DNA of 64,000 nucleotides from Pseudomonadota bacterium (GTDB lineage: Bacteria > Pseudomonadota > Alphaproteobacteria > Caulobacterales > Maricaulaceae). Positions 6,455 through 42,354 of the stretch are shown here, in pieces. Within the stretch, counting starts at the first letter, position 1, and every line of letters starts with the position of its first letter. The stretch spans positions 26,792 through 90,791 of the forward strand of contig JAZAHA010000056.1 in assembly GCA_036231565.1 (NCBI GenBank), given 5' to 3'. A program made the translations under genes and the position numbers. Under the pieces are notes generated by a model. That model searched no databases. It was given only the letters and a program-made list of their open reading frames with translations, and was not told where the DNA came from.

Positions 6455-9898
<3,444 letters not shown>

Positions 9899-10104
9899 CG
9901 CCCGCTCCGTCAGCGCTTCAGAACCGCCTCGCCACGCGCATCACCGGGACAGACGCCCGGGAATCCGGGCCGGAACCGGCCGCCGCGAGTCGAGACATCA
10001 ACAAACTACGCCAGGAACGCGTCAGGCGAAATCAGGCTTGCGGGCCCGATCTCAGTAAACGCGGCCGGAAAGGACTCCGGCACATACCACCAAGCCCGCG
10101 CGCC

Positions 10105-10200
10105 TCAAGCCGCGCCGAGCACGCTTCCCCACATGGCGATCATCCAGGCGAACCCGAGCACAGCCGTGGCGGCAGAGACATCTTGAAGAACGCGGCGCAT
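10105..10200 (-). CDS. sidA: 31-aa membrane peptide, SidA-like SOS cell-division inhibitor
   Basis: MRRVLQDVSAATAVLGFAWMIAMWGSVLGAA*, with GGAGG 5 nt upstream, LexA boxes upstream, and a position directly upstream of dnaE as for Caulobacter sidA. Below the ORF-track length cutoff. Confidence 0.82.
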   Translation of the reverse strand: MRRVLQDVSAATAVLGFAWMIAMWGSVLGAA

Positions 10201-10219
10201 GACAACCTCCCGAATTCAT

Positions 10220-10234
10220 GTTCCGGTTTTGTTC
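10220..10234. promoter_or_regulatory. Alphaproteobacterial LexA box 1 (GTTC-N7-GTTC)
   Basis: GTTCcggttttGTTC; overlaps the -10 of a - strand promoter TTGACG(10259-10254)-N17-TAGAAC(10236-10231). Confidence 0.85.
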
Positions 10235-10266
10235 TATTTCGGCTCAGGCATGACGTCAAGCAGAAA

Positions 10267-10281
10267 GTTCCACAAATGTTC
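10267..10281. promoter_or_regulatory. Alphaproteobacterial LexA box 2
   Basis: GTTCcacaaatGTTC, just upstream of the same -35. Confidence 0.75.
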
Positions 10282-10304: not shown

Positions 10305-11000
10305 CTAGCCGATTTCCGGGCTGTAGGGCGCAAGGTGCCCGTCCTCGAACGTCACGACGCGATCCATCTTCGCGGCGAGCTCGTGATTGTGCGTCGCCAC
10401 CAGGGCCGCGGCCCCGGCGTCGCGCACGGTCTCGCGGAAAGCCTCGAACACGGTCGCCGAGGTGGTCGGGTCGAGATTGCCGGTCGGCTCATCGGCCAGC
10501 AGTGCATGCGGGGCATTGGCCAGCGCGCGGGCAATGGCCACGCGCTGCTGCTCGCCGCCGGACAATTGCGAGGGCTGGTGGGTGGCGCGATCGGACAGGC
10601 CCAGACGCTCGAGCAGGGCATCGGCCCGCGCGATGGCGGCCTTGCGCGGCACACCGCCGATCAGCTGCGGCAGCACGATATTCTCGCGCGCATCGAATTC
10701 GGGCAGCAGATGGTGGAACTGGTAGACAAAGCCGATATCCCGACGGCGGATGGCCGTGCGTTGCCGGTCGGACAGGCCGCTTGTCGCAGCACCGCAGACG
10801 ACCACTTCACCCCCGTCGGGCCGTTCCAGCAGACCCGCCGCATGCAGCAGCGACGACTTGCCGGATCCGGAGGGTCCGACCAGGCCGACAATCTCGCCGG
10901 GCATCAGGGTCAGGCTGACCCCGCGCAGCACTTCCAGCGTGTCGGCTTCGGTCACATAGGTGCGCACGATGTCGCGCAGATCGAGGACGGGATCACTCAT
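10305..11000 (-). CDS. lolD: Lipoprotein-releasing ABC transporter ATP-binding subunit
   Basis: [47 protein letters not shown]; adjacent to lolE. Confidence 0.93.
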
Positions 11001-18862: not shown

Positions 18863-20305
18863 CTAGAGGACGGTCAGCCCGACGGACACGGCCCGGTAAA
18901 CGACCCAGCCCACCACCGGCAGCAGGGCCACTGTGGCCAGGCCAGCGAGGCGCGTCACCCAGTAGATCGACAGGGCGGCCGGAACGAATTCCACCTCGCC
19001 CTCGTCGAACCAGACCGTCTTCACCACCCGCAGATAGTAGGCCGCGCCCACCACGGAGAAGAGAACGGCCAGGACCGCCAGGATCAGCAGACCGGATTCG
19101 ACGGCTGCGTAGATCAGGAAGAACTTGCCGAAGAAGCCGACCATGAAGGGCAGACCGCCGATGGAGAACATCAGCGCGGTGATCGACCAGCCCAGGCCCG
19201 GACTGCGCTGGGCGACGCCGGCCAGATCGGAGATCTGTTCCACCATGCCTTCGCGCGTGCGCATGGACAGGATGGCGCCGAAGGAGCCGATCACCGAGAT
19301 CATGTAGAGCACCATGTAGACCAGAAGCGCCCACATGCCGGTCTGGCTCGCGGCTGCAACGGCCACCAGGGCGTATCCCATATTGGCGATCGAGGAATAG
19401 GCCATCAGGCGTTTGATATTGGTCTGGGTCAGCGCACCGAAGGCGCCGATGCCCATGGACAGCACGGCCAGGATCCAGATCACGTCGCGCCATTGCTCGA
19501 CCATGCCGCCGAAGGGTTCGACCAGCACGCGGGCCAGAAGGATCATGGCGGCAAATTTGGGAGCCGTCGCAAAGAAGGCCGTCACCGGCGTCGGTGCGCC
19601 CTCATACACGTCCGGCGTCCACATGTGGAACGGCGCGGCGGAAACCTTGAAGGCCAGACCGCAGATCACGAAGACGAGGCCGAAAATGAGGCCGACCGTC
19701 GGACCGCTTTCCACGGCGATGGCGATCTCGTTGAAGCCCGTGGCACCAGCGAAGCCATAGACCAGCGATGCGCCGTAGAGCAGCAGGCCGGACGACAGTG
19801 CGCCGAGCACGAAATACTTCAGACCGGCTTCCGAGGCGCGCAGGCTGTCGCGGTTGAAGGCCGCCAGCACGTAGAGCGCCAGGGATTGCAGCTCGATCGC
19901 CATATACATGGAGATCAGGTCATTGGCCGACACCATCATCATCATGCCCGCGGCGGCGAGCGTGACCAGGATGGCATATTCCATCTTGCCGAGCTTTTCC
20001 GCCTGCAGGTACGGCATGGCGAGCAGCATGGCGATCGCCGCGACAATGCCGATGGCCACTTTGGAGAAGCGGGCCAGGCTGTCGAAGATGAAGCCGCCGG
20101 AGAAGGCCGTCCCCTCGCCCGTCACGGCGAACAGGGCTGCCAGACCGGCAACGGCCAGCAGGCCGACGGTCAGCCATTGCACGAGTCGGTTGGCGCCCTC
20201 GCCCTTCAGGAAAACGCCCAGCATGAGCAGCGCCATGGCGCCGCAGGCCAGGAGGATTTCCGGGATGAGGAGCGTCAGATCCTGGGAAAGCATGTCCGCA
20301 GTCAT
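18863..20305 (-). CDS. nuoN: NADH-quinone oxidoreductase subunit N
   Basis: EAGLKYFVLGALSSG, FKVSAAPFHMWTPDVYEGAP, KRLMAYSSI. Confidence 0.97.
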   Translation of the reverse strand: MTADMLSQDLTLLIPEILLACGAMALLMLGVFLKGEGANRLVQWLTVGLLAVAGLAALFAVTGEGTAFSGGFIFDSLARFSKVAIGIVAAIAMLLAMPYLQAEKLGKMEYAILVTLAAAGMMMMVSANDLISMYMAIELQSLALYVLAAFNRDSLRASEAGLKYFVLGALSSGLLLYGASLVYGFAGATGFNEIAIAVESGPTVGLIFGLVFVICGLAFKVSAAPFHMWTPDVYEGAPTPVTAFFATAPKFAAMILLARVLVEPFGGMVEQWRDVIWILAVLSMGIGAFGALTQTNIKRLMAYSSIANMGYALVAVAAASQTGMWALLVYMVLYMISVIGSFGAILSMRTREGMVEQISDLAGVAQRSPGLGWSITALMFSIGGLPFMVGFFGKFFLIYAAVESGLLILAVLAVLFSVVGAAYYLRVVKTVWFDEGEVEFVPAALSIYWVTRLAGLATVALLPVVGWVVYRAVSVGLTVL

Positions 20306-20317
20306 GGCGTGCCTCTC

Positions 20318-21832
20318 CTACTGGGCCGGTGCGGGCAGCGCCGCATTGTAATTGGTGATCAGATTGTCGACCGAAGCCGCCGTGATGTCGGTCACCACGG
20401 TCGAGGACACGCCGAGCCACAGCGTCATGATGATGAGCGGGATGAAGATCGCCCATTCCATGCGGTTGAGGTCGGTGATGGTCTCGAGTTTCGGATTGGT
20501 GATCTCGCCGAACACCACATCGCGATACATGGTCAGCATGTACATTGCCGACAGGATTACGCCGGCGGCGGCACCCGTGGCGATCCACCAGCTCACCTGG
20601 AAGGCACCGACCATCGTCATGATTTCGCCGATGAAGCCGGACGTGCCCGGCAGGCCGACATTGGCCATGGTGAACAGCGCGAAGATCGCGGCATAGGCCG
20701 GCATGCGGTGTACAAGGCCGCCATAGAAGGCGATCTCGCGAGTGTGCATGCGGTCATAGATCACGCCGACGCACAGGAAGAGCGCGCCGGAGATCACGCC
20801 GTGCGAGATCATCTGGAAGATCGCGCCCTGCACGCCCGTCTCGTTCATCGCGAACAGGCCCATCGTCACGAAACCCATGTGGGCGACGGAGGAATAGGCG
20901 ATCAGCTTCTTGATGTCGGTCTGACGGAAGGCAACCAGCGAGGTGTAGATGATCGCGATGATCGACAGCGCGAAGACCAGCGGCGCGAAATAGTCGGACG
21001 CTTCGGGGAACATCGGGATGGAGAAGCGCAGGAAGCCGTAGCCGCCCAGCTTCAGCAGCACGCCCGCCAGGATGACCGAGCCCGCCGTCGGGGCCTGCAC
21101 GTGGGCGTCCGGCAGCCAGGTGTGCACCGGCCACATCGGCATCTTCACTGCGAAGGAGGCGAAGAAGGCCAGCCACATCCACATCTGGGCATTGCGGGCG
21201 AACTCATAGTCCAGCAGCGCCGTGATGTCGGTCGTTCCCGATTGCAGGAACATGTAGACCATCGCGACCAGCATCAGCACCGAGCCGAGCAGGGTGTAGA
21301 GGAAGAATTTGAAGGCCGCATAGACCCGGTTCTGCCCGCCCCACACGCCGATGATGATGAACATCGGGATCAGGCCGCCTTCGAAGAAAATGTAGAAGAC
21401 CACGAGGTCGAGCGCGCAGAACACGCCGATCACCAGGGTTTCCAGCAGCAGGAAGGCGATCATGTAGTCAGCGACGCGCTTCTCGATCGCGCCGGACGCC
21501 ATGATACACAGCGGCATCAGACCGGCGGTCAGCAGCACGAAGAGCACGGAAATACCGTCCACGCCGAGCCGGTAGCCCATGCCGATCTCGGCCAGCCACT
21601 CGATCTCGTGCACGAACTGGAAGCCCGCAGTTTCACGATCGAAATTGGCCACCAGGATGATGGACAGGACCAGCGTCACCATGGTCGCCACCCAGGCCAC
21701 CAGGCGCGAATTCCGGTCGATCAGGGCCTGATCCTCGGGCCGCGCCGTGAAGCGGAAGAGCGCGATGACCAGCGCGCCGATGGCCGGGACGAAGGTCAGG
21801 ATCGAAAGAAAGGCTTCGAACTCGCCAAACAT
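20318..21832 (-). CDS. nuoM: NADH-quinone oxidoreductase subunit M
   Basis: [43 protein letters not shown]. Confidence 0.97.
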
Positions 21833-23938
21833 CTATTGGCCTCCTGCGCCGAACTGGGCCCAGAGCAGAAGCCCCAGAACGCCGATCAGCATGACGAATG
21901 CGTAGTGATAGAGATAACCGGACTGGGCCTTGGCGAGGCGCTTGGCCGCCGCCAGGGTCGAACCGGCCACACCGTTCGGGCCGAAGCCGTCAATGATGCG
22001 GACATCGCCGACTTTCCAGAACAGGTCGCCCAGCCCCTTCGCGCCGCGCACGAAGACGAAGTGGTAGATCTCGTCCACATACCACTTGTTATAGAGGAAG
22101 CTGTGCAGCGGACCGCCGCGGGCGGCGATGCGGGCACCCATGCCCTCATTGATCAGGTAGAACCAGATCGCGCCCAGGAAACCGATCAGCGTTGCAAAGA
22201 ACGGCGAGAGCAGCACCCAGACCGGCGGATGGTGGCCGCCGCCATGATCGCCCTCTGCGCCATGATCGCCTTCGGCGGCATGATCGTCGGCCGCAGCAAC
22301 CGCGTGGTCGTCAGCAGCCGGTTCGGCATGGCTGTCGGCTGCCACGGCATGCGTATCCTCGCCGGCAACCGCCGGGCCATGGGCCGCGGCCGGCAGGGCC
22401 TCGCCCCAGAAGTGGCCGGAATTGTCGCCGATGAAGCTCGACTTGTAGAGCCCGCCGGCCAGCACGGCACCGACGGCCAGAACGACCAGCGGCAGCGCCA
22501 TCGGCCATTTCGGGTCGTGAGCGTGATCGTAGACGTCCTTGGGACCGCGATAGGTGCCGTGGAAGGTCATGAAGATCAGGCGCCAGGAGTAGAAGCTCGT
22601 CAGCAGCGCCGCGACCGTGCCGATCCAGAAGGCCGGAATACCAAAGAACACGCCCTCGCGGCCCGCCATGAAGGCGCCCTCGATGATGGCATCCTTCGAG
22701 AAGAAACCGGCAAAGCCGAGATCCGGCAGGAAGAGGCCGAGCGCGCCGAAGGAGAAACCGACACCGGTGAGCGCCAGCGTGCCGATGATCATCATCAGCC
22801 AGGTCATCGGCATCATGCGGAACAGGCCGCCCATCTTGCGCATGTCCTGCTCGTCATGGACGCCGTGGATCACCGCGCCGGAGCCGAGGAACAAGAGCGC
22901 CTTGAAGAAGGCGTGCGTGAACAGGTGGAACATGGCCGCGCCATAAAGGCCCAGGCCCGCGGCGAAGAACATGTAGCCCAGCTGCGAACAGGTCGAATAG
23001 GCGACAACCCGCTTGATGTCGTTCTGCGCCATGCCGACCGTCGCCGCGAACAGCGCCGTCACGGCACCGATCACGGTGACAATGGCCGAGGCGTTCGGCG
23101 CCATCTCGTAGATCGGGAAGGCCCGGCAGACGAGGAAGACCCCCGCCGTCACCATGGTCGCGGCGTGGATCAGGGCGGAAACCGGCGTCGGGCCTTCCAT
23201 CGCGTCCGGCAGCCAGACGTGCAGGAAGAACTGTGCCGACTTGCCCATCGCGCCGATGAACAGGAGGAAGGCGATCAGCTCGATCGCATTGAAGGACATG
23301 CCCGCGAAGGACAGGACCGCATCCGCCTGGTCGCCGACCTGGGCGAAGACATCGTCAAACGCCACCGAGCCGAAGACGAGGAAGATCGCCATGATGCCCA
23401 GGGCAAAGCCGAAATCGCCGACGCGGTTGGTCACGAAGGCCTTGATGGCCGCGTCATTGGCCGACTTCTTCTTGTACCAGAAGCCGATCAGCAGATAGGA
23501 GGCCAGCCCCACGCCTTCCCAGCCGAAGAAGAGCTGCAGGAAGTTGTCGGCGGTCACCAAGGCGAGCATCGCGAAGGTGAAGAGCGACAGGTAGGAGAAG
23601 AAGCGCGCGCGGTGCGGATCGTGGGACATGTAGCCCCAGGAATAGATGTGCACCAGCGAGGAAACCGAGTTCACCACGACCAGCATGACGGCCGACAGGC
23701 TGTCCAGCTTGATCGCCCAGGAGACGTCGAAATTGCCGACGCTCATCCAGGTCGCGAGATGGATCGTGGTCGTGTTGCCGCCCACCGTCACGTCGAAGAA
23801 GACGATCCAGGACAGCACGGCCGAAAGCAGGACCGCACCGGTGGTGACGATCTGCGCGGCGCGGTGGCCGACATAATTGCCGAAGAGACCGGCAAAGGCC
23901 GAGGCGAGGAGCGGCCCGAAGACGATAATAGGTGCCAT
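21833..23938 (-). CDS. nuoL: NADH-quinone oxidoreductase subunit L
   Basis: GWEGVGLASYLLIGFW, GKSAQFFLHVWLPDAMEGPTPVSALIHAATMV; His-rich insert. Confidence 0.97.
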   Translation of the reverse strand: MAPIIVFGPLLASAFAGLFGNYVGHRAAQIVTTGAVLLSAVLSWIVFFDVTVGGNTTTIHLATWMSVGNFDVSWAIKLDSLSAVMLVVVNSVSSLVHIYSWGYMSHDPHRARFFSYLSLFTFAMLALVTADNFLQLFFGWEGVGLASYLLIGFWYKKKSANDAAIKAFVTNRVGDFGFALGIMAIFLVFGSVAFDDVFAQVGDQADAVLSFAGMSFNAIELIAFLLFIGAMGKSAQFFLHVWLPDAMEGPTPVSALIHAATMVTAGVFLVCRAFPIYEMAPNASAIVTVIGAVTALFAATVGMAQNDIKRVVAYSTCSQLGYMFFAAGLGLYGAAMFHLFTHAFFKALLFLGSGAVIHGVHDEQDMRKMGGLFRMMPMTWLMMIIGTLALTGVGFSFGALGLFLPDLGFAGFFSKDAIIEGAFMAGREGVFFGIPAFWIGTVAALLTSFYSWRLIFMTFHGTYRGPKDVYDHAHDPKWPMALPLVVLAVGAVLAGGLYKSSFIGDNSGHFWGEALPAAAHGPAVAGEDTHAVAADSHAEPAADDHAVAAADDHAAEGDHGAEGDHGGGHHPPVWVLLSPFFATLIGFLGAIWFYLINEGMGARIAARGGPLHSFLYNKWYVDEIYHFVFVRGAKGLGDLFWKVGDVRIIDGFGPNGVAGSTLAAAKRLAKAQSGYLYHYAFVMLIGVLGLLLWAQFGAGGQ

Positions 23939-23944
23939 GATCCC

Positions 23945-24256
23945 CTAGCCCTTCATCAGGTTGACGCCCTCAACCGAGATATCGCCCCGGTTGCGGAAGA
24001 AGACGACGAGAATGGCCAGGCCCACAGCGGCTTCCGCCGCGGCCACGGTCAGAACGAACAGCGCAAACACCTGCCCGGCCAGATCGCCCAGGAAGGACGA
24101 GAAGGCGACGAGGTTGATGTTCACCGACAAGAGGATCAGCTCGATCGACATCAGCAGGATGATGACGTTCTTGCGGTTCACGAAAATGCCGAACACACCG
24201 ATGGTGAAGAGCACCGCGGCGACGGCGAGGTAATGCCCCAGCCCGATCTCCATCAT
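23945..24256 (-). CDS. nuoK: NADH-quinone oxidoreductase subunit K
   Basis: [28 protein letters not shown]. Confidence 0.97.
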
Positions 24257-24864
24257 TCTCCAATCCCCTGTCCCGGCTTGATATCCAGCATTTCAACGGC
24301 GGTCTTGCGATCGCGGCCGACCTGGGCGGTCACGCTCTGGCGCTTGACGCCTTCCTTGTGACGCAGCGTCAGCACGATGGCGCCGATCATGGCGACCAGC
24401 AGCACCAGGCCCGCAATCTGGAAGAAGTAGACATACTGGTCGTAGATCACGGTGCCGAGCGCCTCGACATTGGTCATGCCCTCCGGCATGGCCGCCGCGC
24501 GCAAGGCCTCGGCCTGCGGCGCGCTCTGCCAGCTCATACCGATCATCGCCAGTTCGATCGCCAGCACGATGGCGATCAGCCCGCCCAGCGGCAGATAGCT
24601 CAGAAAGCCCTGCTTCAGCTCGGCGAAGTCGACGTCCAGCATCATGACGACGAAGAGGAAGAGCACCGCGACCGCGCCGACATAGACGACGATCAGCAGC
24701 ATAGCCAGGAATTCGGCGCCCAACAGCACGAACAGCCCCGCGGCCGAGATGAAGGCCAGGATCAGGAACAGCACGGACCTGACCGGGTTGCGGGCGATGA
24801 CGACCATCAGGGCCGACGCGATCGCCACTCCGGAAAAGGCCCAGAAGGCCAGTGATGCGAGCAT
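24253..24864 (-). CDS. nuoJ: NADH-quinone oxidoreductase subunit J
   Basis: [37 protein letters not shown]. Confidence 0.96.
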
Positions 24865-24905
24865 GATGCCCTCTTCCGTCTAATGTTCAGCCAACGCGCC
24901 GCCAA

Positions 24906-25394
24906 TCAGCGGTACGGCGCGTCGAGTTCCAGGTTTCTGGCAATTTCCCGTTCCCAGCGATCGCCGTTCTCGAGCAGTTTTGCCTTGTCGTAGAAAAGTT
25001 CCTCGCGGGTCTCGGCGGCGAACTCGAAGTTCGGGCCTTCCACGATTGCATCGACCGGGCATGCCTCCTGGCAGTAACCGCAATAGATGCACTTGGTCAT
25101 GTCGATGTCGTAGCGCGTGGTGCGGCGCGAGCCGTCGGCGCGCGGTTCCGCCTCGATCGTGATCGCCAGCGCCGGACAGATCGCCTCGCACAGCTTGCAG
25201 GCGATGCAGCGCTCTTCGCCGTTGGGATAGCGGCGCAGCGCATGCTGACCGCGGAAGCGCGGGCTGAGCGGCCCCTTCTCGAAGGGATAGTTCAGCGTCG
25301 CCTTCTTCTTGAAGAAGTAGCGCATGCCCAGGCCGAAGGCGGACCAGAAGTCCATCAGCAGGGCGCCGCGAATGGTTTGTTGCAATCGGCTCAT
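24906..25394 (-). CDS. nuoI: NADH-quinone oxidoreductase subunit I
   Basis: [12 protein letters not shown] and [12 protein letters not shown] 4Fe-4S motifs. Confidence 0.98.
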
Positions 25395-25399
25395 GGGAG

Positions 25400-26473
25400 T
25401 TATCCTTGCGGGCCGTAGACGACGGCAGCACCCACCAGGGCCACCGCAACCAGCGAGGTCGGCAGGAAGATCTTCCAGCCCAGGCGCATCAGCTGGTCGT
25501 AGCGGTAACGCGGGACCAGGGCCTTCACCATCGCAAACATGAAGAAGAAGAACACGACCTTGGCGGCGAACCAGAAGAAGTGCCAGGCGTGCGAAGCCAG
25601 ATAGGGCCAGTCACTGACGAATCCGTCCGGGAAAGGCGCATGCCAGCCGCCGAAGAACAGGATGGTCGTCATCGCGCACATCAGCACGATGTTGAGATAC
25701 TCGCCCACCATGAAGAGGAGGTAGGGCGTAGAGGAGTATTCCACCTGATAGCCGGCGACGAGTTCGGATTCGGCTTCGGGAAGGTCGAAGGGCGGACGGT
25801 TGGTTTCCGCCAGCGCCGAGATGAAGAACATCACCGCCATCGGCACCATCACCAGGAACATCGGCAGCGGGAAAGCGTGGAACGCCAGCAGGTTCCAGTT
25901 CCAGAAACCGCCGGCCTGGATGTCGACGATGTCGGACAGGCGCATCGAGCCGGCGAACAGCAGCACGGTGACGATGATGAAGCCGATCGAGACTTCATAG
26001 GACACCATCTGCGCCGCCGAGCGCAGCGCGCCCAGGAAGGGATATTTCGAGTTCGAGGCCCAGCCGCCGATGATGATGCCGTAGACACCCAGCGACGACA
26101 TGGCGAACAGGTAGAGGATGCCGACATTGAGGTCGGCGATCACCCAGCCCGGCGCCACAGGCACAACGGCCCAGGTGATGAAGGCGAGGATCAGCGTGAT
26201 CAGCGGCGCCAGCAGGTAGAGCGAGCGGTCCGCGCCGGCCGGCACGACGATTTCCTTGAACACGAACTTGAAGAAGTCCGCGAAGGATTGCAGCAGGCCG
26301 AAGGCGCCGACCACGTTCGGGCCCTTGCGCATCTGCACCGCCGCCCAGACCTTGCGGTCCATCAGCAGCAGGAAGGCCAGCGAGATCAGCAGCACGATCA
26401 TGAAGGCCAGGATCTGGCCGATCACGGCAAGCGTGCCCCAGAGCGGGCCGAATTGGGAGACGAACTCGCTCAT
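25400..26473 (-). CDS. nuoH: NADH-quinone oxidoreductase subunit H
   Basis: [39 protein letters not shown]. Confidence 0.97.
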
Positions 26474-26476
26474 CGC

Positions 26477-28570
26477 TTACTCCGCCGCTACTGCCGCCGG
26501 GGCGTCCTTGAGCGCGGCGCATTCGGCCAGCGTCTTGGAAGCCCGGGCAACCGGGTTGGTGAAATAGAAATTGCGCACCGCCGGCGTGAAGGCCGCATCG
26601 GCGACATCCCCGTCGGCACCGATCGACTTGGCGTCGAACGCCGCCGCGCCTTCGGCACCCGGGGCATGATCGATTCCGCCGAGCACGGGAACGTCCTCGA
26701 ACAGTTTCAGGCGCAGCTGGGTGAGATTGTCATAGGGCAGCGTCTTGCCGACACGCTCGGACAGCGCGCGGAAGATGGCCCAGTTTTCCTTGGCCTCGCC
26801 CTTCGGGAAGACCGAGCGGAAAGCCAGCTGTACGCGGCCTTCGGTGTTGGCGAACAGGCCGTCCTGTTCGGTCCAGGCTGCACCCGGCAGCACGAGATCG
26901 GCGCGGTGGGCACCGGCATCGCCATGGCTGCCGACATAGATGACAAAGGCATCGCCGAACTTCGACATGTCCAGCTCGTCGGCGCCCATGAGGACAACCG
27001 TCTCCATGCCGCCCGACTGCATGCCGGCCACATCCTGACCGCCCTCACCCGGCACGAAGCCGAGATCGAGACCGGCCACGCGGCTGGCCGCCGTGTGCAG
27101 CACCGAGAACCCGTTCCAGTCTTCGCTGACAGCGCCGACCGCGGCGGCCAGATCGCCGGCCGCGCGCAGCACCTGGGCGCCGTCCTCGCGGGCCAGCGCA
27201 CCGGCACCGACCAGGATGAGCGGACGCTTGGCGTCCTTCAGTGTCTTGATGAAGCCCGAACGCTTCTTCTTCAGGCCGGCCAGATCCTTGGCGCCCGTTC
27301 CGACATGCTCGTACTCGTAGGTCAGGTCGACCGGCTCGCCGATCACGCCGACCTTGGTGTCATTGTGCAGCCAGGTCTTGCGGATCCGCGCATTGACGAT
27401 GGCCGCCTCGACGCGTGGATTGGCGCCGACGATGAGGATGGCGTCTGCCTCCTCGATGCCCGCGATCGTCGCGTTGAACAGATATTCCTGACGCGGACCG
27501 GTGCCCAGCTTGGCACCGTCCTGGCGGCAGTCGATCGAGGCGATGCCCAGGGCATCGGCCAGATCCTTGGCCGCTTTCATCTCTTCTGCCGAGCACAGAT
27601 CGCCGGCGATCATGCCGATCTTCGAGGCATCGCCGGACAGACGCTTGGCCGCCACGTCCAGCGCCTCGCTCCAGCTTGCGGCGCGCAGCTTGCCGTTCTC
27701 GCGGATATAGGGCTTGTCCAGACGGCGCTTGCCCAGGCCTTCCCAGGCGTAGCGCGTCTTGTCGGAGATCCATTCCTCGTTCACGCCCTCATGGACGCGC
27801 GGCAGGATGCGCAGCACGGCGCCGCCGCGGGCATCCACGCGGATGTTCGAGCCGACCGCGTCCATCACATCGACGGTCTCGGTCTTCTTCAGCTCCCAGG
27901 GACGGGCGTTGAAGGCGTAGGGCTTGGAGGTCAGCGCACCGACCGGGCACAGGTCGATGACATTGCCGGACAGTTCCGACGTCACCGCGTTTTCCAGATA
28001 GGTCGTGATCTCGGCATCCTCGCCGCGGCCGATCATGCCGATCTCCGGCACGCCGGCGACCTCGGTGACGAAGCGGACGCAGCGCGTGCACTGGATGCAG
28101 CGCGTCATCTCCGTCTTGATGATCGGACCCATTTCCTTGTCTTCGACGGCGCGCTTGTTTTCCGGGAAGCGCGAGCCGGTACGGCCATAGACCAGCGACT
28201 GGTCCTGCAGGTCGCACTCGCCGCCCTGGTCGCAGATCGGGCAGTCCAGCGGGTGGTTGATGAGCAGGAACTCCATCACCCCTTCGCGCGCCTTCTTCAC
28301 CATCGGCGACAGCGTGTTCATGGCCGGCGGTTCGCCATTCGGCCCGCCGCGCATGTCGCGCACCTGCATCGCACAGGACGCGGCCGGCTTCGGCGCGCCG
28401 ACGAGTTCCACCAGACACATCCGGCAATTGCCGGCGACCGACAGGCGCTCGTGATAGCAAAAGCGCGGGATTTCCCGGCCGGCAGCCTCGGCAGCCTGCA
28501 ACAGCGTGAAGGAATTCGGTACTTCGACTTCCTCGCCGTCGATAACGATTTTGCGGAGATCTTCGCTCAT
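26477..28570 (-). CDS. nuoG: NADH-quinone oxidoreductase subunit G
   Basis: IPRFCYHERLSVAGNCRMCLVE, NHPLDCPICDQGGECDLQ, RCIQCTRC. Confidence 0.98.
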   Translation of the reverse strand: MSEDLRKIVIDGEEVEVPNSFTLLQAAEAAGREIPRFCYHERLSVAGNCRMCLVELVGAPKPAASCAMQVRDMRGGPNGEPPAMNTLSPMVKKAREGVMEFLLINHPLDCPICDQGGECDLQDQSLVYGRTGSRFPENKRAVEDKEMGPIIKTEMTRCIQCTRCVRFVTEVAGVPEIGMIGRGEDAEITTYLENAVTSELSGNVIDLCPVGALTSKPYAFNARPWELKKTETVDVMDAVGSNIRVDARGGAVLRILPRVHEGVNEEWISDKTRYAWEGLGKRRLDKPYIRENGKLRAASWSEALDVAAKRLSGDASKIGMIAGDLCSAEEMKAAKDLADALGIASIDCRQDGAKLGTGPRQEYLFNATIAGIEEADAILIVGANPRVEAAIVNARIRKTWLHNDTKVGVIGEPVDLTYEYEHVGTGAKDLAGLKKKRSGFIKTLKDAKRPLILVGAGALAREDGAQVLRAAGDLAAAVGAVSEDWNGFSVLHTAASRVAGLDLGFVPGEGGQDVAGMQSGGMETVVLMGADELDMSKFGDAFVIYVGSHGDAGAHRADLVLPGAAWTEQDGLFANTEGRVQLAFRSVFPKGEAKENWAIFRALSERVGKTLPYDNLTQLRLKLFEDVPVLGGIDHAPGAEGAAAFDAKSIGADGDVADAAFTPAVRNFYFTNPVARASKTLAECAALKDAPAAVAAE

Positions 28571-28582
28571 TGGATGAAGTCC

Positions 28583-29896
28583 CTACTCTGCCGCAACGGC
28601 CTGGCTGACAAACACGGGTTTGCCGGCGCGATAATTGTTGATGCGTTCCTCGATCTCGCCCCGGAAGTGGCGTATCAGGCCCTGGACGGGCCAGGCGGCC
28701 GCGTCACCGAGCGCACAGATCGTGTGGCCTTCCACCTGGCCGGCGACGTCGAGCAGCATGTCGATCTCCTCGATCGAGCTCTCGCCGCGTGCCATGCGCT
28801 CCAGCACGCGCCACATCCAGCCCGTGCCTTCACGGCACGGCGTGCACTGGCCGCAGCTTTCGTGGCGGTAGAAGTAGGAGATGCGCGCGATCGCCTTCAC
28901 CACATCGGTGGACTTGTCCATGACGATGACGGCGGCGGTGCCCAGACCGGACTTGTGCGCCTGCAGCGCATCGAAATCCATCAGCACATCGTCGCAGATA
29001 TCTTTCGGCAGTAGCGACACCGAAGAGCCGCCCGGAATGACGGCCTTCAGATTGTCCCAGCCGCCGCGCACGCCGCCGGCATGCGTCTCGATGAGCGTCT
29101 TCATCGGGATCGACATGGCTTCTTCGACATTGCACGGCTTGTTCACATGGCCGGAGATAGAGAAGATCTTTGTGCCGACATTCCGCTCGCGGCCGAAAGA
29201 GGCAAACCATTGCGCCCCGCGGCGCAGGATCGTGCCCGCAACCGCGATGGATTCAACATTGTTCACCGTGGTCGGGCAGCCATACAGACCGGCATTGGCC
29301 GGGAAAGGCGGTTTCAGGCGCGGCTGGCCCTTCTTGCCTTCCAGGCTTTCCAGCAGGGCCGTTTCCTCGCCGCAGATATAGGCGCCGGCACCGTGATGGA
29401 TATAGACGTGGAACGGCCAGCCATGCACGTTCTTCTCGCCGATCAGCTTGGCCTCATAGGCCTCCTTGACGGCTTTCTCCATCGCCAGGCGCTCGGTGAC
29501 ATACTCACCGCGCAGATAGATGTAGCAGGCGTGCGCCTGCATCGAGAATGACGCGATCAGGCAGCCTTCGATGAGAAGGTGCGGATCGTGGCGCATGATC
29601 TCGCGGTCCTTGCACGTGCCCGGCTCGGATTCGTCGGCATTGACGACAAGATAGTGCGGACGTGCGCCCACTTCCTTGGGCATGAAGGACCATTTCAGAC
29701 CGGTCGGGAAACCGGCGCCGCCGCGGCCGCGCAGGCCCGACGCCTTCATCTGGTCGATGATCCAATCGCGGCCCTGTTCGAGGATTTCCTTGGTCCCGTT
29801 CCATGCACCGCGCTGTTTGGCGCCGTCCAGACCGGGGTCGTGGTGGCCGAACAGATTGGTGAAGATACGGTCCTTGTCCTGGAGAAGCTGGGTCAT
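28583..29896 (-). CDS. nuoF: NADH-quinone oxidoreductase subunit F
   Basis: [43 protein letters not shown]. Confidence 0.98.
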
Positions 29897-29899
29897 GAC

Positions 29900-30574
29900 T
29901 TAGCCCTCCGCCTTTTCGGACTTGCCGGTATTGGGAAGCGTGACCGGCTTGGCGCGCGAGCCGTCATAGAGGCTTTCATCGGTCAGCACCTTGGTGCCAT
30001 GCGGCTCGGAGGCGTTACGCTCGGATTGCGGGCCGTATTTGACCTTCTTGCCGGCGGCGAGGTCGTCGAGCAGTTTCTCGAAGCTCTCCGCGTCGAGATC
30101 CTCGATGTAGTGGTCGCCATCCTTGTTCGCGAGCTGGATCATAGGGGCATTGGCGCAGGCGCCCATGCACTCCACCTCGACCCAGGTGAACTTGCCGTCT
30201 TCGGAGATCTCGTGCTGCTTGCCGATGCGGTTCTTGCACACCGAAATCAGCTCGTCCGACCCGCGCAGCATGCACGGCGTGGTGCCGCAGACCTGGATCA
30301 GATGCTCACCGACCGGGGCCAGGTTGAACATGGTGTAGAAGGTCGCGACCTCGTAGACGCGGATGTAGGGCATCTCCAGCCGGTCGGCGATCTCGCGGAT
30401 GGCGGGCTCGCAGACCCAGCCGTCCTGCTTCTGCGCGATCCACAACATGGGGATGACGGCCGAGGCTTTCTTTTCCTCGGGATATTTCGCCAGCCAGAAC
30501 TTGATCTCGTCCTCGCTCTTCTTGTTGAAGACGAAGCTTTCCGGCTGTTCTTTCGCGAGACGACGAACGCTCAT
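29900..30574 (-). CDS. nuoE: NADH-quinone oxidoreductase subunit E
   Basis: [29 protein letters not shown]. Confidence 0.97.
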
Positions 30575-31776
30575 CGGTCGATCTCCCCGAACACGATGTC
30601 CAGCGAGCCCAGGATGGCGGAGACGTCCGCCAGCATGTGGCCGCGATTCATGAAATCCATGGCTGCCAGGTGCGGGAAGCCGGGCGCCCGGATCTTCACG
30701 CGGTACGGCTTGTTCGAGCCGTCGGAGACCAGATAGACGCCGAACTCGCCCTTCGGGGCCTCGACGGCGGCATAGACCTCGCCAGCCTCGACATGGACGC
30801 CTTCAGTGTAGAGTTTAAAGTGCTGGATGAGCGCTTCCATCGAGCGCTTCATCTCGGCGCGGCGCGGCGGCGAGAATTTCGAGTCGGTGGCCAGCACCTC
30901 GCCCGCATTCTCCTCCTTCATGAGCCAGTCGCAGCACTGGATCATGATCTTCACGCTCTCGCGCATCTCTTCCATGCGGCACAGATAGCGATCATAGCAA
31001 TCGCCGTGCTTGCCGACCGGAATGTTGAACTCCAGCTCGTCATAGACTTCGTAGGGCTGCGAGCGGCGCAGATCCCAGGCCAGGCCCGAACCGCGCACCA
31101 TCACACCGGAGAAGCCCCAGGCGAGCACATCTTCCTTGGTCACCACGCCGATATCGACATTGCGCTGCTTGAAGATGCGATTCTCGGTCAGGAGGCTGTC
31201 GATATCGTCCAGCTTTTCCGGGAACTGGTCGCACCAGGCCCGGATGTCCTCGACCAGTTTAGGCGGCAGGTCCTGGTGGACACCGCCGGGACGGAAATAG
31301 TGAGCATGCATGCGGCTGCCCGAAGCGCGCTCGTAGAACACCATCAGCTTTTCGCGCTCCTCGAAGCCCCAGAGCGGCGGCGTCAGGGCGCCGACATCCA
31401 TGGCCTGGGTCGTCACGTTGAGCAGATGGTTCAGGATACGGCCGATCTCGCAGTACAGCACGCGCACATACTGGCCGCGCTTCGGCACGGTGATACCGGC
31501 CAGACGCTCGGCCGCCATGCAGAAGGCGTGCTCCTGATTCATCGGCGCGACATAGTCGAGACGGTCGAAATAGCCGATGCCCTGGAGATAGGTCTTGTGC
31601 TCCAGCAGCTTCTCGGTGCCGCGGTGCAGAAGGCCGATATGCGGATCGACGCGTTCGACCACCTCACCGTCCAGCTCCAGCACGAGACGCAGCACGCCGT
31701 GGGCGGCCGGGTGCTGGGGACCGAAATTGAGGGTGAACTTGCGTTCGCCGGATTGCGTCATGTCGTCGGCAGCCAT
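30571..31776 (-). CDS. nuoD: NADH-quinone oxidoreductase subunit D
   Basis: [43 protein letters not shown]. Confidence 0.98.
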
Positions 31777-31780
31777 GGCT

Positions 31781-32413
31781 CTAGCCCTCCGCCTTCTCGT
31801 CGCCCGGGATGACGTATTTGGCGCCTTCCCACGGGCTCATGAAATCGAAGTCACGGTATTCCTGGACCAGTTCGACCGGTTCGTAGACCACGCGTTTCTG
31901 CTCCTCGTCCCAGCGGACTTCGACATAGCCGGTGAGCGGGAAGTCCTTGCGCAGCGGATAGCCCTCGAAACCGTAATCGGTCAGCAGGCGGCGCAGATCC
32001 GGATGGCCGGAGAAGACGATGCCGTACATGTCGAACGCCTCGCGCTCGAACCAGTCGGCAACGGGGTAGACATGATGGATCGAGGGAACCGGGTTCTCCT
32101 CATCGGTCGACAGCTTCACGCGCACCCGGTGATTCTGGTGCATGGAGAGCAGATGGTAGACCACTTCGAACCGCTCGGCGCGCTGCGGATAGTCGACACC
32201 GCAGATGTCGACCAGCGTCGTGAACTTGCAGGCCGGCTCGTCGCGCAGCCAGGTGATCACATCCTCGACCTGGTCGCGATGGATCGTCACGGTCAGCTCG
32301 CCCTGGGTCACAGTCCAGCCGGTAACAGCCGTGGGCTGACCCGCCTGGATGTGCTCGCCGAGAACCTTGAGAGCTTCGCTCATCGCCTTGTCACTCCTCG
32401 CGCCTGCCATCAC
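31781..32413 (-). CDS. nuoC: NADH-quinone oxidoreductase subunit C
   Basis: [25 protein letters not shown]. Start is 32413 (ATGA-coupled to nuoB) or 32383. Confidence 0.96.
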
Positions 32414-32976
32414 CGTTCGATCGAGCCTTCACGGCGGATCTTCTTCTGCAGTTGAAGAATGCCGTAGACCAGCGCCTCTGCGGTGGGCGGGCAGCCCGGC
32501 ACATAGACGTCGACCGGTACGATGCGGTCACAACCGCGCACGACCGAATAGGAATAATGGTAGTAGCCGCCGCCATTGGCGCACGAACCCATCGAGATGA
32601 CGTAGCGCGGCTCGGGCATCTGGTCGTAGACCTTGCGCAGGGCCGGCGCCATCTTGTTGGTGAGCGTACCCGCAACGATCATCACGTCCGACTGGCGCGG
32701 GGAGGCCCGCGGCGCAAAGCCGAAGCGCTCGACGTCGTAACGCGGCATCGAGGCCTGCATCATTTCCACGGCGCAGCAGGCCAGGCCGAACGTCATCCAC
32801 ATCAGCGAGCCGGTGCGGGCCCAGGTGACGAGATCGTCGGCAGCGGCGACCACGAATCCCTTGTCGGCCAGCGCATCGCTGACGCCGTCAAAGAACGGGT
32901 CGTGTTTCTTCGGGTCATAGCCGGGAACGGTCGCGCGTCCGGCCATGCCGGCATGAGGGGTCAGATCAGATGCCAT
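32410..32976 (-). CDS. nuoB: NADH-quinone oxidoreductase subunit B
   Basis: [32 protein letters not shown]. Confidence 0.98.
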
Positions 32977-32982
32977 GGTGGA

Positions 32983-33351
32983 CTACTCCCAATCCAGCGC
33001 GCCTTTTTTCAGCTCGTAAATGAAGCCGATGGTGAGAACTCCCAGGAACACCATCATCGACCAGAACTCGAACTCGCCCAGATGCTCCCGCAGGGTCACG
33101 GCCCAGGGGAAGAGGAAGGCGACTTCCAGGTCGAAGATGATGAACAGGATGGCGACGAGATAGAATCGCACGTCGAATTTCATGCGGGCGTCGTCGAAGG
33201 CGTTGAAGCCGCATTCATAGGTCGAGACCTTTTCCGGGTCCGGTTTCGACGGCGCGATCACAAAGGCGGCCAGCATGAAGCCGAGGCCGATCGCAGTCGC
33301 CAGACCGAAAAAGATCAGGATGGGCAGGTAATCGAGAAGCAGCGCGTCCAT
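32983..33351 (-). CDS. nuoA: NADH-quinone oxidoreductase subunit A
   Basis: From [10 protein letters not shown]; [27 protein letters not shown]. Confidence 0.96.
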
Positions 33352-33471
33352 CGCCAAGCCTCGCCTTCTAGCGTCGGTTTTGCGGTGCGGGAGGCCGTTG
33401 TTTTCAAGGTGTGATCCGCCTCGGGACGAATCAACCACCGGCAACGGGACCCCCTGCCCGATTTGGCGCGG

Positions 33472-40496: not shown

Positions 40497-40531
40497 TCGA
40501 TCCGTGCACCACACCCTCCAACAGAGGGAAA

Positions 40532-40577
40532 TGGCGCGAGTGACGGGACTCGAACCCGCGACCTCCGGCGTGACAGG
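40532..40577 (-). repeat. att-type duplicate of the tRNA-Asp 3' portion (tRNA nt 32-77)
   Basis: 46 bp identical to 42278-42323 (49 bp with the flanking AAA); identity stops within the anticodon arm. Confidence 0.95.
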
Positions 40578-40703
40578 TTCGAAAAATATCTAATTAAATC
40601 AGTAGCATTTTCAACTTCGGGCCGTGCCGTGTGAGCGCGTTCTAGCTAGTTCAGAAGTAGAAAGTAGAAACGAAGGTGGCTCAGGAAACCGTATTTTTGA
40701 AGG

Positions 40704-40731
40704 GAAGAGAGCCCCTACTGGGACTCTCTTC
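40704..40731. terminator. Hairpin downstream of the islet cargo gene
   Basis: GAAGAGAG...CTCTCTTC 8-bp stem with inner CCC/GGG, 14 bp past the stop; weak U-tract. Confidence 0.45.
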
Positions 40732-40744
40732 GTATTCAAAGCAT

Positions 40745-41932
40745 CTACAATCCGGCACGACGCTCAAGATCGCGCTTCGCGACGATATTGTGCAAGTTCG
40801 CCCAATGAGGTCGGCTCTTTCCGACCGATTGGGGATTCCTCCCCAAGCTATCGCTCATCTCTTTGGTGGCGCGAAGGAGATGGTATCCGTCTTCTCGCCA
40901 GAACTTCAGAACGTTATTGAAGGACCCGCGCCACCGATATTCACCGGTCATTGGATCAGCTTCCACATACCAACGGAGCGACGCCAAAATAGCGTACAGT
41001 GGACCACTCACCATCCGATACTCCGAGTTCTTCTGGATGAACGGAAAGCTCCACACACCCTTTTGCCGTTTTTCGGTGAAACTGAGCGCGCCTGCAGCCC
41101 CCCTCTGTCCGGCGGACGCTGCCGTACCGTTCCACAGCTCGTAGTACTCGTACCTGATGGTGTCGTAGAGCTGCAGAATATCCTTCAGGAGCGGACGCGC
41201 ATTCTCGAAGGTCTTCGCCCTGTTTTCGAACTCCGTGAGCACCTTGGACTTCTTCTCGTACGCATGAACGGGATGCTCAGGCCCGTCATTCGGGTACAGA
41301 CCGATATTGAAACACGCCAACATGCTCAGAATGTCGCGAGCGTCGAAACTGCCATAGTCGTTCTCCGACCAGGCGATTTCATCGAAGTAGGGCTCGGCTT
41401 TGAGATCGGCTTTGATCCAGTCGAAAAGACCACCCAGATTATCGAGGCTCATGTCCTGAACCTGAACGGACGTGTTCAGTCCGCCCGCGATATCAGTGAT
41501 CAGATCATCCGGCACTCCAACCCGAACCTCGATTGTGACGAACTGGTTCGCAGGCAGGATACCAAGTTTCAAATTTCGGCAAATGAGGTCGTAGGTGTGC
41601 CCACCATCGACGATCCCGTCTCGCCCAGACAGCATCTCGACCTGGTATCGATCGTTGGCCATTTGCTTGACCGACTTGGCAACAATCGTGATGCCCTTGT
41701 TTTTCAGATGGAAAGTATTCGGATAGTCGACATCCTCGTTCAGAAGGCTTTGTTCAACTTTCCGATAAACTCGCTTGTTGGTTTTTGGCCTGCGCGCATT
41801 CGGGTCAAGCGAAATACCCAAAGGCATTCCAGAAACTGGCGCCAAAAAAATATGCCGCTCCAAGCCTTCAATGACTGGATCGGCAATCCGCCGCGCCACA
41901 CGCACGGGAAATTCGACGGTAACAACCGACAT
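40745..41932 (-). CDS. AIPR-family-like protein (short form, about 395 aa)
   Basis: PNARR, FHLKNKGITIV, GIVDGGHTY and LNTSVQV match the AIPR core pattern (N.R / NNGIT / I.DGG.T / N.Q..V). Start MSVVTVEF at 41932 has GGAG upstream; the ORF-track TTG at 42040 is an alternative. Confidence 0.75.
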   Translation of the reverse strand: MSVVTVEFPVRVARRIADPVIEGLERHIFLAPVSGMPLGISLDPNARRPKTNKRVYRKVEQSLLNEDVDYPNTFHLKNKGITIVAKSVKQMANDRYQVEMLSGRDGIVDGGHTYDLICRNLKLGILPANQFVTIEVRVGVPDDLITDIAGGLNTSVQVQDMSLDNLGGLFDWIKADLKAEPYFDEIAWSENDYGSFDARDILSMLACFNIGLYPNDGPEHPVHAYEKKSKVLTEFENRAKTFENARPLLKDILQLYDTIRYEYYELWNGTAASAGQRGAAGALSFTEKRQKGVWSFPFIQKNSEYRMVSGPLYAILASLRWYVEADPMTGEYRWRGSFNNVLKFWREDGYHLLRATKEMSDSLGRNPQSVGKSRPHWANLHNIVAKRDLERRAGL

Positions 41933-42007
41933 ATTCTTCTCCGTAACTATCGCGATCTCGCGATGCTGATGAACGGTGTGCAGCGATCTCGCCGCCACCG
42001 ATTCGAT

Positions 42008-42036
42008 AATATACCGCGCACTGCGCTTCGGCACAA
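42008..42036 (-). promoter_or_regulatory. Putative sigma70 promoter of the islet cargo gene
   Basis: TTGTGC(42036-42031)-N17-TATATT(42013-42008); supports the 41932 start. Confidence 0.55.
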
Positions 42037-42277
42037 CCAAGACTTGATAAACCTCCGTCTTGCTATGCCGGAGGTCGCAAGACGTCGCCTCACGGCGAAC
42101 CGAGGCGGCGCTTTCAAAAAAAACTAGGCAGGAAAGGAAAAAAACCGGCAGAGGCTCTCAAACAAACCGCTGCGCGTTTCAACGCAAGTTGAACCTCGCT
42201 GGCTCAAAAAGTTGAAACCAGTGTCGAAATTAGTTGAAACTTTCGGGAACAGAAAATCGCTAAGCCATTGAAAAAAA

Positions 42278-42354
<77 letters not shown>

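Follow-up and report, generated by a model that had tools for sequence, protein, structure and literature searches.

Division inhibitors of the SOS response

SidA of Caulobacter crescentus (CCNA_02004; family NF033228) is a cell division inhibitor of 29 amino acids, its source study reportedly being that of Modell et al. 2011. At positions 10105-10281 of the 64-kb stretch of DNA analyzed here (the window; contig JAZAHA010000056.1), an open reading frame (ORF) of 31 codons is found together with a promoter, directly upstream of dnaE. We conclude, with a probability of roughly 0.7, that the ORF, a gene in its own right, is repressed by LexA and encodes a 31-residue peptide that crosses the inner membrane once, the Maricaulis-clade counterpart of SidA. 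The source of the window is a Maricaulis species: the first 300 residues of the window DnaE are 99% identical to those of a Maricaulis metagenome-assembled genome (MAG) and 97% identical to those of M. virginensis.

In C. crescentus, SidA binds FtsW and, more weakly, FtsN, and its suppressors map to ftsW and ftsI; over-produced, it blocks constriction while the Z-ring stays assembled (PMC4211646). The window peptide resembles it in size (31 vs. 29 amino acids), in its predicted single helix with a short charged N-terminal head, in the position of its gene 5' of dnaE and 3' of lolE-lolD, and in the two GAAC-N7-GAAC LexA boxes, close to those of sidA in sequence, just 5' of the Shine-Dalgarno sequence. 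The differences are an extension of 2-5 residues at the C-terminus, a longer distance to dnaE (206 nt in the window, and for the most part 62-332 nt in its clade, vs. 23-32 nt for sidA) and the location of operator 1 on the 5' side of the -35 element rather than in tight tandem with the other box.

C. crescentus possesses another small inner-membrane inhibitor of the late divisome (FtsW/FtsI/FtsN), DidA, which is DNA damage-induced as well but is controlled by DriD independently of SOS, binds FtsN and is encoded at another locus (PMC4211646). A sequence relation between DidA and the window peptide was not found; the latter has LexA boxes and a sequence of the SidA type. The same logic of LexA-repressed division delay is represented by SulA in gamma-proteobacteria, YneA in Bacillus, SosA in Staphylococcus, and ChiZ and DivS in actinobacteria. 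Two of them, YneA and SosA, likewise cross the membrane once, and YneA is reported to act on FtsW (PMC13396833). However, YneA, SosA, ChiZ and DivS are unrelated in sequence, larger and equipped with extracellular domains (LysM in YneA), whereas SulA, unrelated in sequence and larger too, is cytoplasmic and targets FtsZ. Finally, TisB and DinQ of E. coli are LexA-regulated hydrophobic inner-membrane peptides of 27-29 amino acids. They are pore-forming or depolarizing toxins with polar or charged residues in their helices and a cis or trans antisense RNA. For the window peptide, the helix shows no such residues, insensitive scans of the locus detected no antisense RNA, and no sequence relation to these toxins is apparent.

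Relation of the window peptide to SidA

The sequence-only reading of this DNA had taken the ORF for a diverged SidA orthologue under LexA control, and coding signature, gene position, profile alignment and operator layout all agree with this. The alignment with SidA, which it had named as a check, is gapless from residue 1. In hhalign, the Maricaulis-type alignment matched that of SidA with a probability of 94.7% (P 6e-8, score 30.7), with columns 1-23 of the one paired to columns 1-23 of the other; with larger sets (56 vs. 139 sequences) the match was 96.3% (P 1.5e-9, score 37.3; columns 1-23/24, counted from M1 and again without a gap). This homology goes beyond composition. Shuffling the SidA columns 300 times, with the polar head and the hydrophobic tail kept separate, gave a mean score of 9.7 (standard deviation 2.8, maximum 21.3) vs. 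the observed 30.7, and over all 600 column shuffles the means were 8.6-9.7 and the maximum was again 21.3. The SidA sequence quoted in the sequence-only reading is indeed SidA-like (70.8 bits over its full length with NF033228), although this exact string is not among the listed database sequences.

The same relation is seen at the level of single sequences. As a background set we used 1435 natural ORFs of 25-45 amino acids starting with M, taken from the window and the related loci. A hidden Markov model (HMM) of SidA ranked the true SidA ORFs of this set first, and the next ~35 were all syntenic peptides (17.0 bits for locus L034, 10.3 bits for the window), with unrelated ORFs beginning at 4.8 bits. 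In the reverse search, the best sequences outside the Maricaulis-type family were SidA ORFs (9.8-10.0 bits); hence, the two groups are reciprocal best matches. The core common to both clades consists of M1, R3, an acidic residue at position 7, A10, G16, F17, W19 and M20.

The peptide gene also occupies the place of sidA, on the same strand as dnaE and directly 5' of it. The minus-strand gene order in the window is glyoxalase, DUF1467, (DUF1203, CHMI), proS, lolE, lolD, peptide ORF, dnaE, rpsB, tsf, pyrH. Two contigs with Caulobacter-type SidA (L032, L033) show the order (proS)-lolE-lolD-(one variable gene)-sidA-dnaE, followed on the longer contig by rpsB-tsf, and the sidA stop codon lies 23-32 nt ahead of dnaE in both. 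In L034 and L035, more divergent members of the clade to which the window belongs, the order is proS-lolE-lolD-peptide-dnaE-rpsB. In C. crescentus itself, the locus tags of sidA (ccna_02004) and dnaE (ccna_02003) are adjacent (PMC12700426).

The operators can be compared as well. The published LexA boxes of C. crescentus sidA, GTTCACAAGATGTTC and TTTCTTGTTTTGTTC, end 49 and 15 nt before the coding sequence (PMC12700426 supplement), and exactly this spacing is present in L033. The window boxes, GTTCCACAAATGTTC and GTTCCGGTTTTGTTC, end 66 and 19 nt before the coding sequence. Operator 1 of the window resembles box 1 of C. crescentus sidA, and operator 2 is nearly identical to box 2 (reverse complement GAACAAAACAAGAAA). 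The peptide promoter carries two perfect LexA operators, and these are conserved across genera.

Metagenomes were scanned at the DNA level with the pattern GAACAAA-N4-GAA, 12-42 nt, ATG, 14 codons, GGN-TTY-NNN-TGG. At least 120 loci were recovered; among the matches listed, 97 have a hydrophobic, family-like ORF of 28-36 amino acids, in most cases with dnaE seen directly downstream (the exceptions being mainly short contigs). The ~23 of the 120 matches listed that lack such an ORF are mostly due to chance, and one of them is a family ORF cut by the contig end. Bridging forms with hallmarks of both clades are present among these metagenome matches, e.g., MTLLARESLALASIVGFAWMVCQLASFAG and MKTLVHDCIAVLTVGGFVWTCLLWLQILERGMLS. 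Under single-linkage clustering, SidA and the Maricaulis-type clade form separate groups at 45% gapless identity and above and are merged at 40%. The curated model of NCBIfam (NF033228, 'cell division inhibitor SidA') is an equivalog model of 29 positions with a cut-off of 35 bits, which the window peptide does not reach; it would therefore fall into a sister clade. Taken from these comparisons, the placement of the window peptide as a diverged, distant relative of SidA outside the curated model appears supported.

Candidates resembling the family were also seen in Parvibaculum (L024-L026), where an ORF of 44 amino acids (MRGLMKTVSNSGDGWLQDVAALLSVGAFIYVAATWVTIAEALVG) lies ~130-230 nt 5' of dnaE and is preceded, at the same position, by TTGACA and two GAAC-N7-xAAC boxes. 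Its core, LQDV.A...G.F....W, resembles the peptide family. These ORFs were not counted as members, as they score 5.8-7.2 bits with the HMM vs. 7.9 bits for the best unrelated ORF.

The gene, its promoter and the spacer before dnaE

The peptide ORF is a real, conserved gene under purifying selection. A DnaE-based genome scan brought in 31 loci. An ORF of 31 codons with the same start context is present 5' of dnaE in 18 Maricaulis loci, and versions of 30-34 codons are found in Hyphobacterium, Glycocaulis and Marinicauda; together with uncultured relatives, at least 30 related loci have kept the gene. The 18 Maricaulis alleles are all distinct and all 31 codons long. Among them, 16, 8 and 26 of 30 columns are variable at the first, second and third codon position, respectively, the mean proportions of synonymous (pS) and nonsynonymous (pN) differences are 0.53 and 0.12 (pN/pS 0.23), and the codon for Ser26 switches between AGC and TCG. 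Peptide length, Shine-Dalgarno sequence and ATG are constant, while 62 to 332 nt, and at the extreme 1268 nt, separate the ORF from dnaE. This extreme is the Maricaulis MAG BWSM_1 (L005), in which the peptide is 100% identical and both boxes are retained despite an insertion before dnaE; therefore, the peptide unit appears to be autonomous. The insertion (L005 1733-3000, ~1.27 kb) carries a convergent class A beta-lactamase-like gene (with STFK, SDN and KTG motifs), and a long inverted repeat follows directly after the peptide stop codon.

The family comprises ~56 distinct peptides of 30-34 amino acids. In a profile search that covered 5.8 billion proteins and used an alignment headed by a mis-started family member of 40 amino acids, 39 clusters were found. 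A phmmer search against 1.84 billion representatives returned only six close relatives and no SidA, and Pfam and NCBIfam assigned no family to the peptide or its relatives. Near-identical members are labelled 'hypothetical protein C7435_0674 [Maricaulis maris]' or 'twin-arginine translocation signal domain-containing protein', and none of the named family members in public annotations bears the name SidA. The twin-arginine translocation (Tat) naming recurs in clusters P0001 and P0046-P0056 and in L001-L004 and is a systematic mis-annotation by the NCBI pipeline, which arises because MRRFLQ and the hydrophobic residues behind it look like a Tat signal. The window peptide itself, letter for letter, is contained in a public protein collection that draws on NCBI, JGI and ENA (67 contigs), and the ORF appears in several public records, so that the gene is not 'uncalled', as had been supposed in the sequence-only reading. 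The elements which that reading had listed (the ORF, its Shine-Dalgarno sequence, TTGACG-N17-TAGAAC and two perfect boxes) were all recovered in place by direct reading. They are given below together with their neighbours; coordinates are those of the window, and the sequences are read on the minus strand, which is the gene strand.

10267..10281, minus strand: LexA operator 1, GAACATTTGTGGAAC on the gene strand; its end lies 7 nt 5' of the -35 element
10254..10259, minus strand: -35 element TTGACG, read directly; 17 nt to the -10 element
10231..10236, minus strand: -10 element TAGAAC, the last four bases of which double as the first half-site of operator 2
10220..10234, minus strand: LexA operator 2, GAACAAAACCGGAAC, spanning -10 to about +5, 19 nt before the ATG
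10206..10211, minus strand: Shine-Dalgarno sequence GGGAGG, 5 nt ahead of the ATG
10105..10200, minus strand: SidA-like peptide ORF, 31 codons and stop, product MRRVLQDVSAATAVLGFAWMIAMWGSVLGAA
10200 and 10107-10105, minus strand: start codon ATG (at 10200) and stop codon TGA of the peptide ORF, from the ORF list
9899..10104, minus strand: spacer between the peptide gene and dnaE, 206 nt
10008..9987, minus strand: conserved element TAGTTTG...GACTC within the 206-nt spacer, with a GC-rich hairpin next to it
6455..9898, minus strand: dnaE (DNA polymerase III alpha subunit), from ORF and translation
10305..11000, minus strand: lolD-like ABC ATPase (Pfam ABC_tran), the upstream neighbour that fixes the synteny

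AlphaFold2, run with an alignment of 33 sequences, predicts one helix from residue 2 to residue 29 (mean pLDDT 91.3). The head of seven residues, MRRVLQD, contains basic and acidic residues, and the remaining 24 residues are uncharged (GRAVY 1.61). The product is thus predicted to be a membrane peptide with one helix, similar to SidA in size (31 vs. ~29 amino acids) and in its short charged head.

Perfect GTTC-N7-GTTC boxes occur in the window only at these two sites (shuffled sequences give 1.5 per window), on one strand and 47 nt apart, the form on the gene strand being GAAC-N7-GAAC. Boxes with one mismatch are at chance level (39 vs. 42 expected). In 30 related loci, 44 perfect boxes lie within 120 nt 5' of the peptide ATG and six in the other 196 kb, i.e., a ~400-fold enrichment. 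Both window boxes have the extended half-site TGTTC, as do the published LexA boxes of C. crescentus (PMC12700426). As had been noted before, one box covers the -10 element and the start site: operator 2 overlaps the last 4 nt of the -10 element and the expected point of initiation.

An alignment of the related loci anchored at the ATG provides a phylogenetic footprint: the intervening bases drift, but box 1, cTTGACG, taGAAC joined to box 2, and GGGAG persist. Among Maricaulis loci, box 1 is held at the same place with variable neighbouring bases, and cTTGACG is kept in nearly all of them, 17-18 nt from the -10 element, which reads taGAAC or aaGAAC across loci. Box 2 (GAACAAAnnnnGAAC) is kept in all Maricaulis, Hyphobacterium, Glycocaulis and Marinicauda loci, and 27 loci have GGGAG or GGAGG at the same distance from the ATG. 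The housekeeping promoter consensus of Caulobacter is TTGACgS-N10-14-GCtANAWC, and the peptide promoter looks like a match to this consensus. The arrangement of boxes and promoter elements has the appearance of a LexA switch, to which LexA would bind and which DNA damage would induce.

No intrinsic terminator was predicted by a scan of the 206-nt spacer, and the spacer does not fold better than its shuffles (z = -0.64). The conserved element within it consists of TAG-N-CTG, a GANTC (CcrM methylation) site 4-20 nt later and, behind it, a GC-rich hairpin whose sequence varies. It is found in L001-L022, L028 and L034, being located 49-134 nt 5' of the dnaE ATG in most Maricaulis, Hyphobacterium and Glycocaulis loci and in L034, and 326 nt 5' of dnaE in L008. 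In L005 the element has stayed beside dnaE after the insertion; it therefore goes with dnaE rather than with the peptide gene. Possibly, it is the own promoter or leader of dnaE and is perhaps under cell-cycle control. GANTC sites are also seen in the two Caulobacter-type loci L032 and L033, where Glu-Ser at codons 7-8 of SidA is encoded by GAATC or GAGTC, so that in these loci sidA has a GANTC methylation site within its own coding sequence. In the Maricaulis clade the site is in the spacer and not in the peptide coding sequence.

In C. crescentus, dnaE is listed among the SOS genes (log2 fold change 1.18-1.45; PMC12700426). Read-through from the peptide promoter into dnaE during the SOS response is plausible in view of the missing terminator, the shuffle-like folding of the spacer and a contig that spans both genes (see below). 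That it would be necessary is contradicted by the convergent gene between the two genes in L005 and by the upstream element that dnaE keeps for itself. Three marine metatranscriptomes give a hint of expression: their contigs specific to this 900-nt stretch are confined to 10101-10273, that is, the ORF with its leader, and two of the three ORF contigs end at 10215-10224, near the predicted start site. In a fourth metatranscriptome, a contig of 1660 nt, derived from a strain of ~90% similarity, extends from 10283 across the ORF and into dnaE. Runs X5, X6 and X21 were dropped as expression evidence, being DNA-like with flat low depth.

Elsewhere in the window, a low-GC islet of 1.75 kb (40529-42354; 51-56% GC vs. 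~65%) is flanked by perfect direct repeats of 49 nt (40529-40577 and 42275-42323), the second of which is the 3' part of tRNA-Asp(GTC) (42278-42354, minus strand). It contains a single gene of the AIPR family (abortive-infection type; 40745..42040, minus strand) and no integrase. Two one-mismatch LexA boxes at 42180-42250 were dismissed, as they are located at the junction of islet and tRNA. At 18863-33444, a long run of co-oriented minus-strand ORFs with very high GC at third codon positions resembles one large operon.

Alternatives, proposed mechanism and significance

Several observations weigh against the assignment to SidA and to a LexA-controlled promoter. Neither the window peptide nor any of three relatives was matched by NF033228 at E<=10, our own SidA HMMs (built from 75 and 139 SidA sequences) score the window peptide at 10.3 and 9.9 bits, and the gapless identity to the nearest SidA is ~34%. 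The C-terminal third differs, with W24-G25 invariant in the Maricaulis-type clade vs. C22 and V24-A25 in SidA; therefore, the target specificity could differ as well. A scan for E. coli-type promoters made no call at the peptide promoter, because the -10 element ends in C. One ORF contig reaches 10273, which is beyond the predicted -35 element, and the metatranscriptome contigs are assembled at low depth, come from strains 90-95% similar to the window and may include DNA carry-over.

The size class, the single hydrophobic helix and the LexA operators would also suit an SOS-induced type I toxin like TisB or DinQ of E. coli, which depolarizes or damages the inner membrane and induces dormancy. 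We regard such a function as unlikely. Sequence, position and promoter layout tie the peptide to SidA, an inhibitor that targets the divisome; the 24-residue helix of the window peptide lacks the charged or strongly polar residues employed by TisB-type pores; and neither an antisense promoter nor an Rfam small RNA was detected at the locus, with scans that are both insensitive. Somewhat less likely still is a regulatory leader (upstream ORF) of dnaE, the translation of which would tune SOS expression of dnaE while the peptide itself has no function in trans. The constant place of the ORF just 5' of dnaE on the same strand, the lack of a predicted terminator, the single RNA-derived contig covering both genes and the modest SOS induction of dnaE in C. 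crescentus could all be explained in this way. A leader of this kind is difficult to reconcile, however, with purifying selection on the amino acid sequence across genera (pN/pS 0.23), with a distance to dnaE varying from 62 to 1268 nt and with the unchanged peptide of L005, separated from dnaE by a convergent gene and an inverted repeat. Moreover, dnaE keeps a conserved upstream element of its own, and SidA of C. crescentus acts in trans (PMC4211646).

It is very improbable that the ORF encodes an orphan Tat signal or what is left of an exported protein after truncation. Such a signal is mimicked by MRRFLQ or MRRVLQ with the following hydrophobic stretch and GAA, one member has been named accordingly by NCBI, and TIGR01409 matches with 14 bits, under its cut-off of 16.7 bits. 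Yet the twin arginine itself is not conserved, being replaced by RQ, RE or LD in members of the family; a stop codon comes right after the helix in every locus, no relative has a mature domain, and the peptide family is related to SidA. We give equally little credit to a chance ORF within a LexA-regulated promoter or leader of dnaE. Although GC-rich genomes are rich in spurious ORFs, several of which overlap this very region, the codon-position pattern, the serine codon switch, the fixed length, the conserved Shine-Dalgarno sequence and the conservation across genera are those of a gene, and loss of the frame in close relatives was looked for and not observed.

The reading that we prefer, a LexA-repressed SidA counterpart, suggests the following mechanism. 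In undamaged cells, LexA dimers would occupy both GAAC-N7-GAAC operators, one against the -35 element and the other over the -10 element and the start site. Upon DNA damage, RecA-stimulated cleavage of LexA would free the TTGACG-N17-TAGAAC promoter, and a leader of ~24 nt with a strong Shine-Dalgarno sequence would allow rapid synthesis of the peptide. This would enter the membrane with the N-terminal MRR..D head on the cytoplasmic side, and the uncharged helix with its conserved G16-F17-x-W19-M20 face would cross it. Like SidA, the peptide may then bind the late divisome (FtsW along with FtsI and FtsN), so that constriction is blocked until repair is complete. Transcripts that are not terminated in the spacer could add a modest SOS boost to dnaE, which appears to own a promoter. 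LexA binding, damage induction, topology, target and division block are what we infer from the whole of the analysis.

More tentatively, and with odds that we put below even, SidA might be one branch of an older module, a LexA-switched gene for 29-34 amino acids placed before dnaE, which is spread over Caulobacterales and Maricaulales and perhaps Parvibaculum, with a functional coupling to dnaE and with the G-F-x-W-M face binding the divisome. If so, one SOS promoter would both brake division and top up the alpha subunit of the replicative polymerase, and the clade-specific W-G at the C-terminus might reflect a shift of target inside the FtsW/FtsI/FtsN complex.

Among alphaproteobacteria, SidA serves as the model for division control by the SOS response. 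The curated NCBIfam model recognizes only sequences of the Caulobacter/Phenylobacterium type. A sister clade at the same locus in marine stalked bacteria would extend this checkpoint beyond one family. The alignment of ~200 distinct peptides defines a likely functional core (M1, R3, acidic 7, G16-F17-x-W19-M20) for mutagenesis or modelling with FtsW, the 'Tat signal domain protein' and 'hypothetical' annotations of the family can be corrected, and a simple DNA pattern recovers its members whatever the gene calling. The linkage to dnaE, a gene that is co-induced in C. crescentus, is conserved as well and may be functional.

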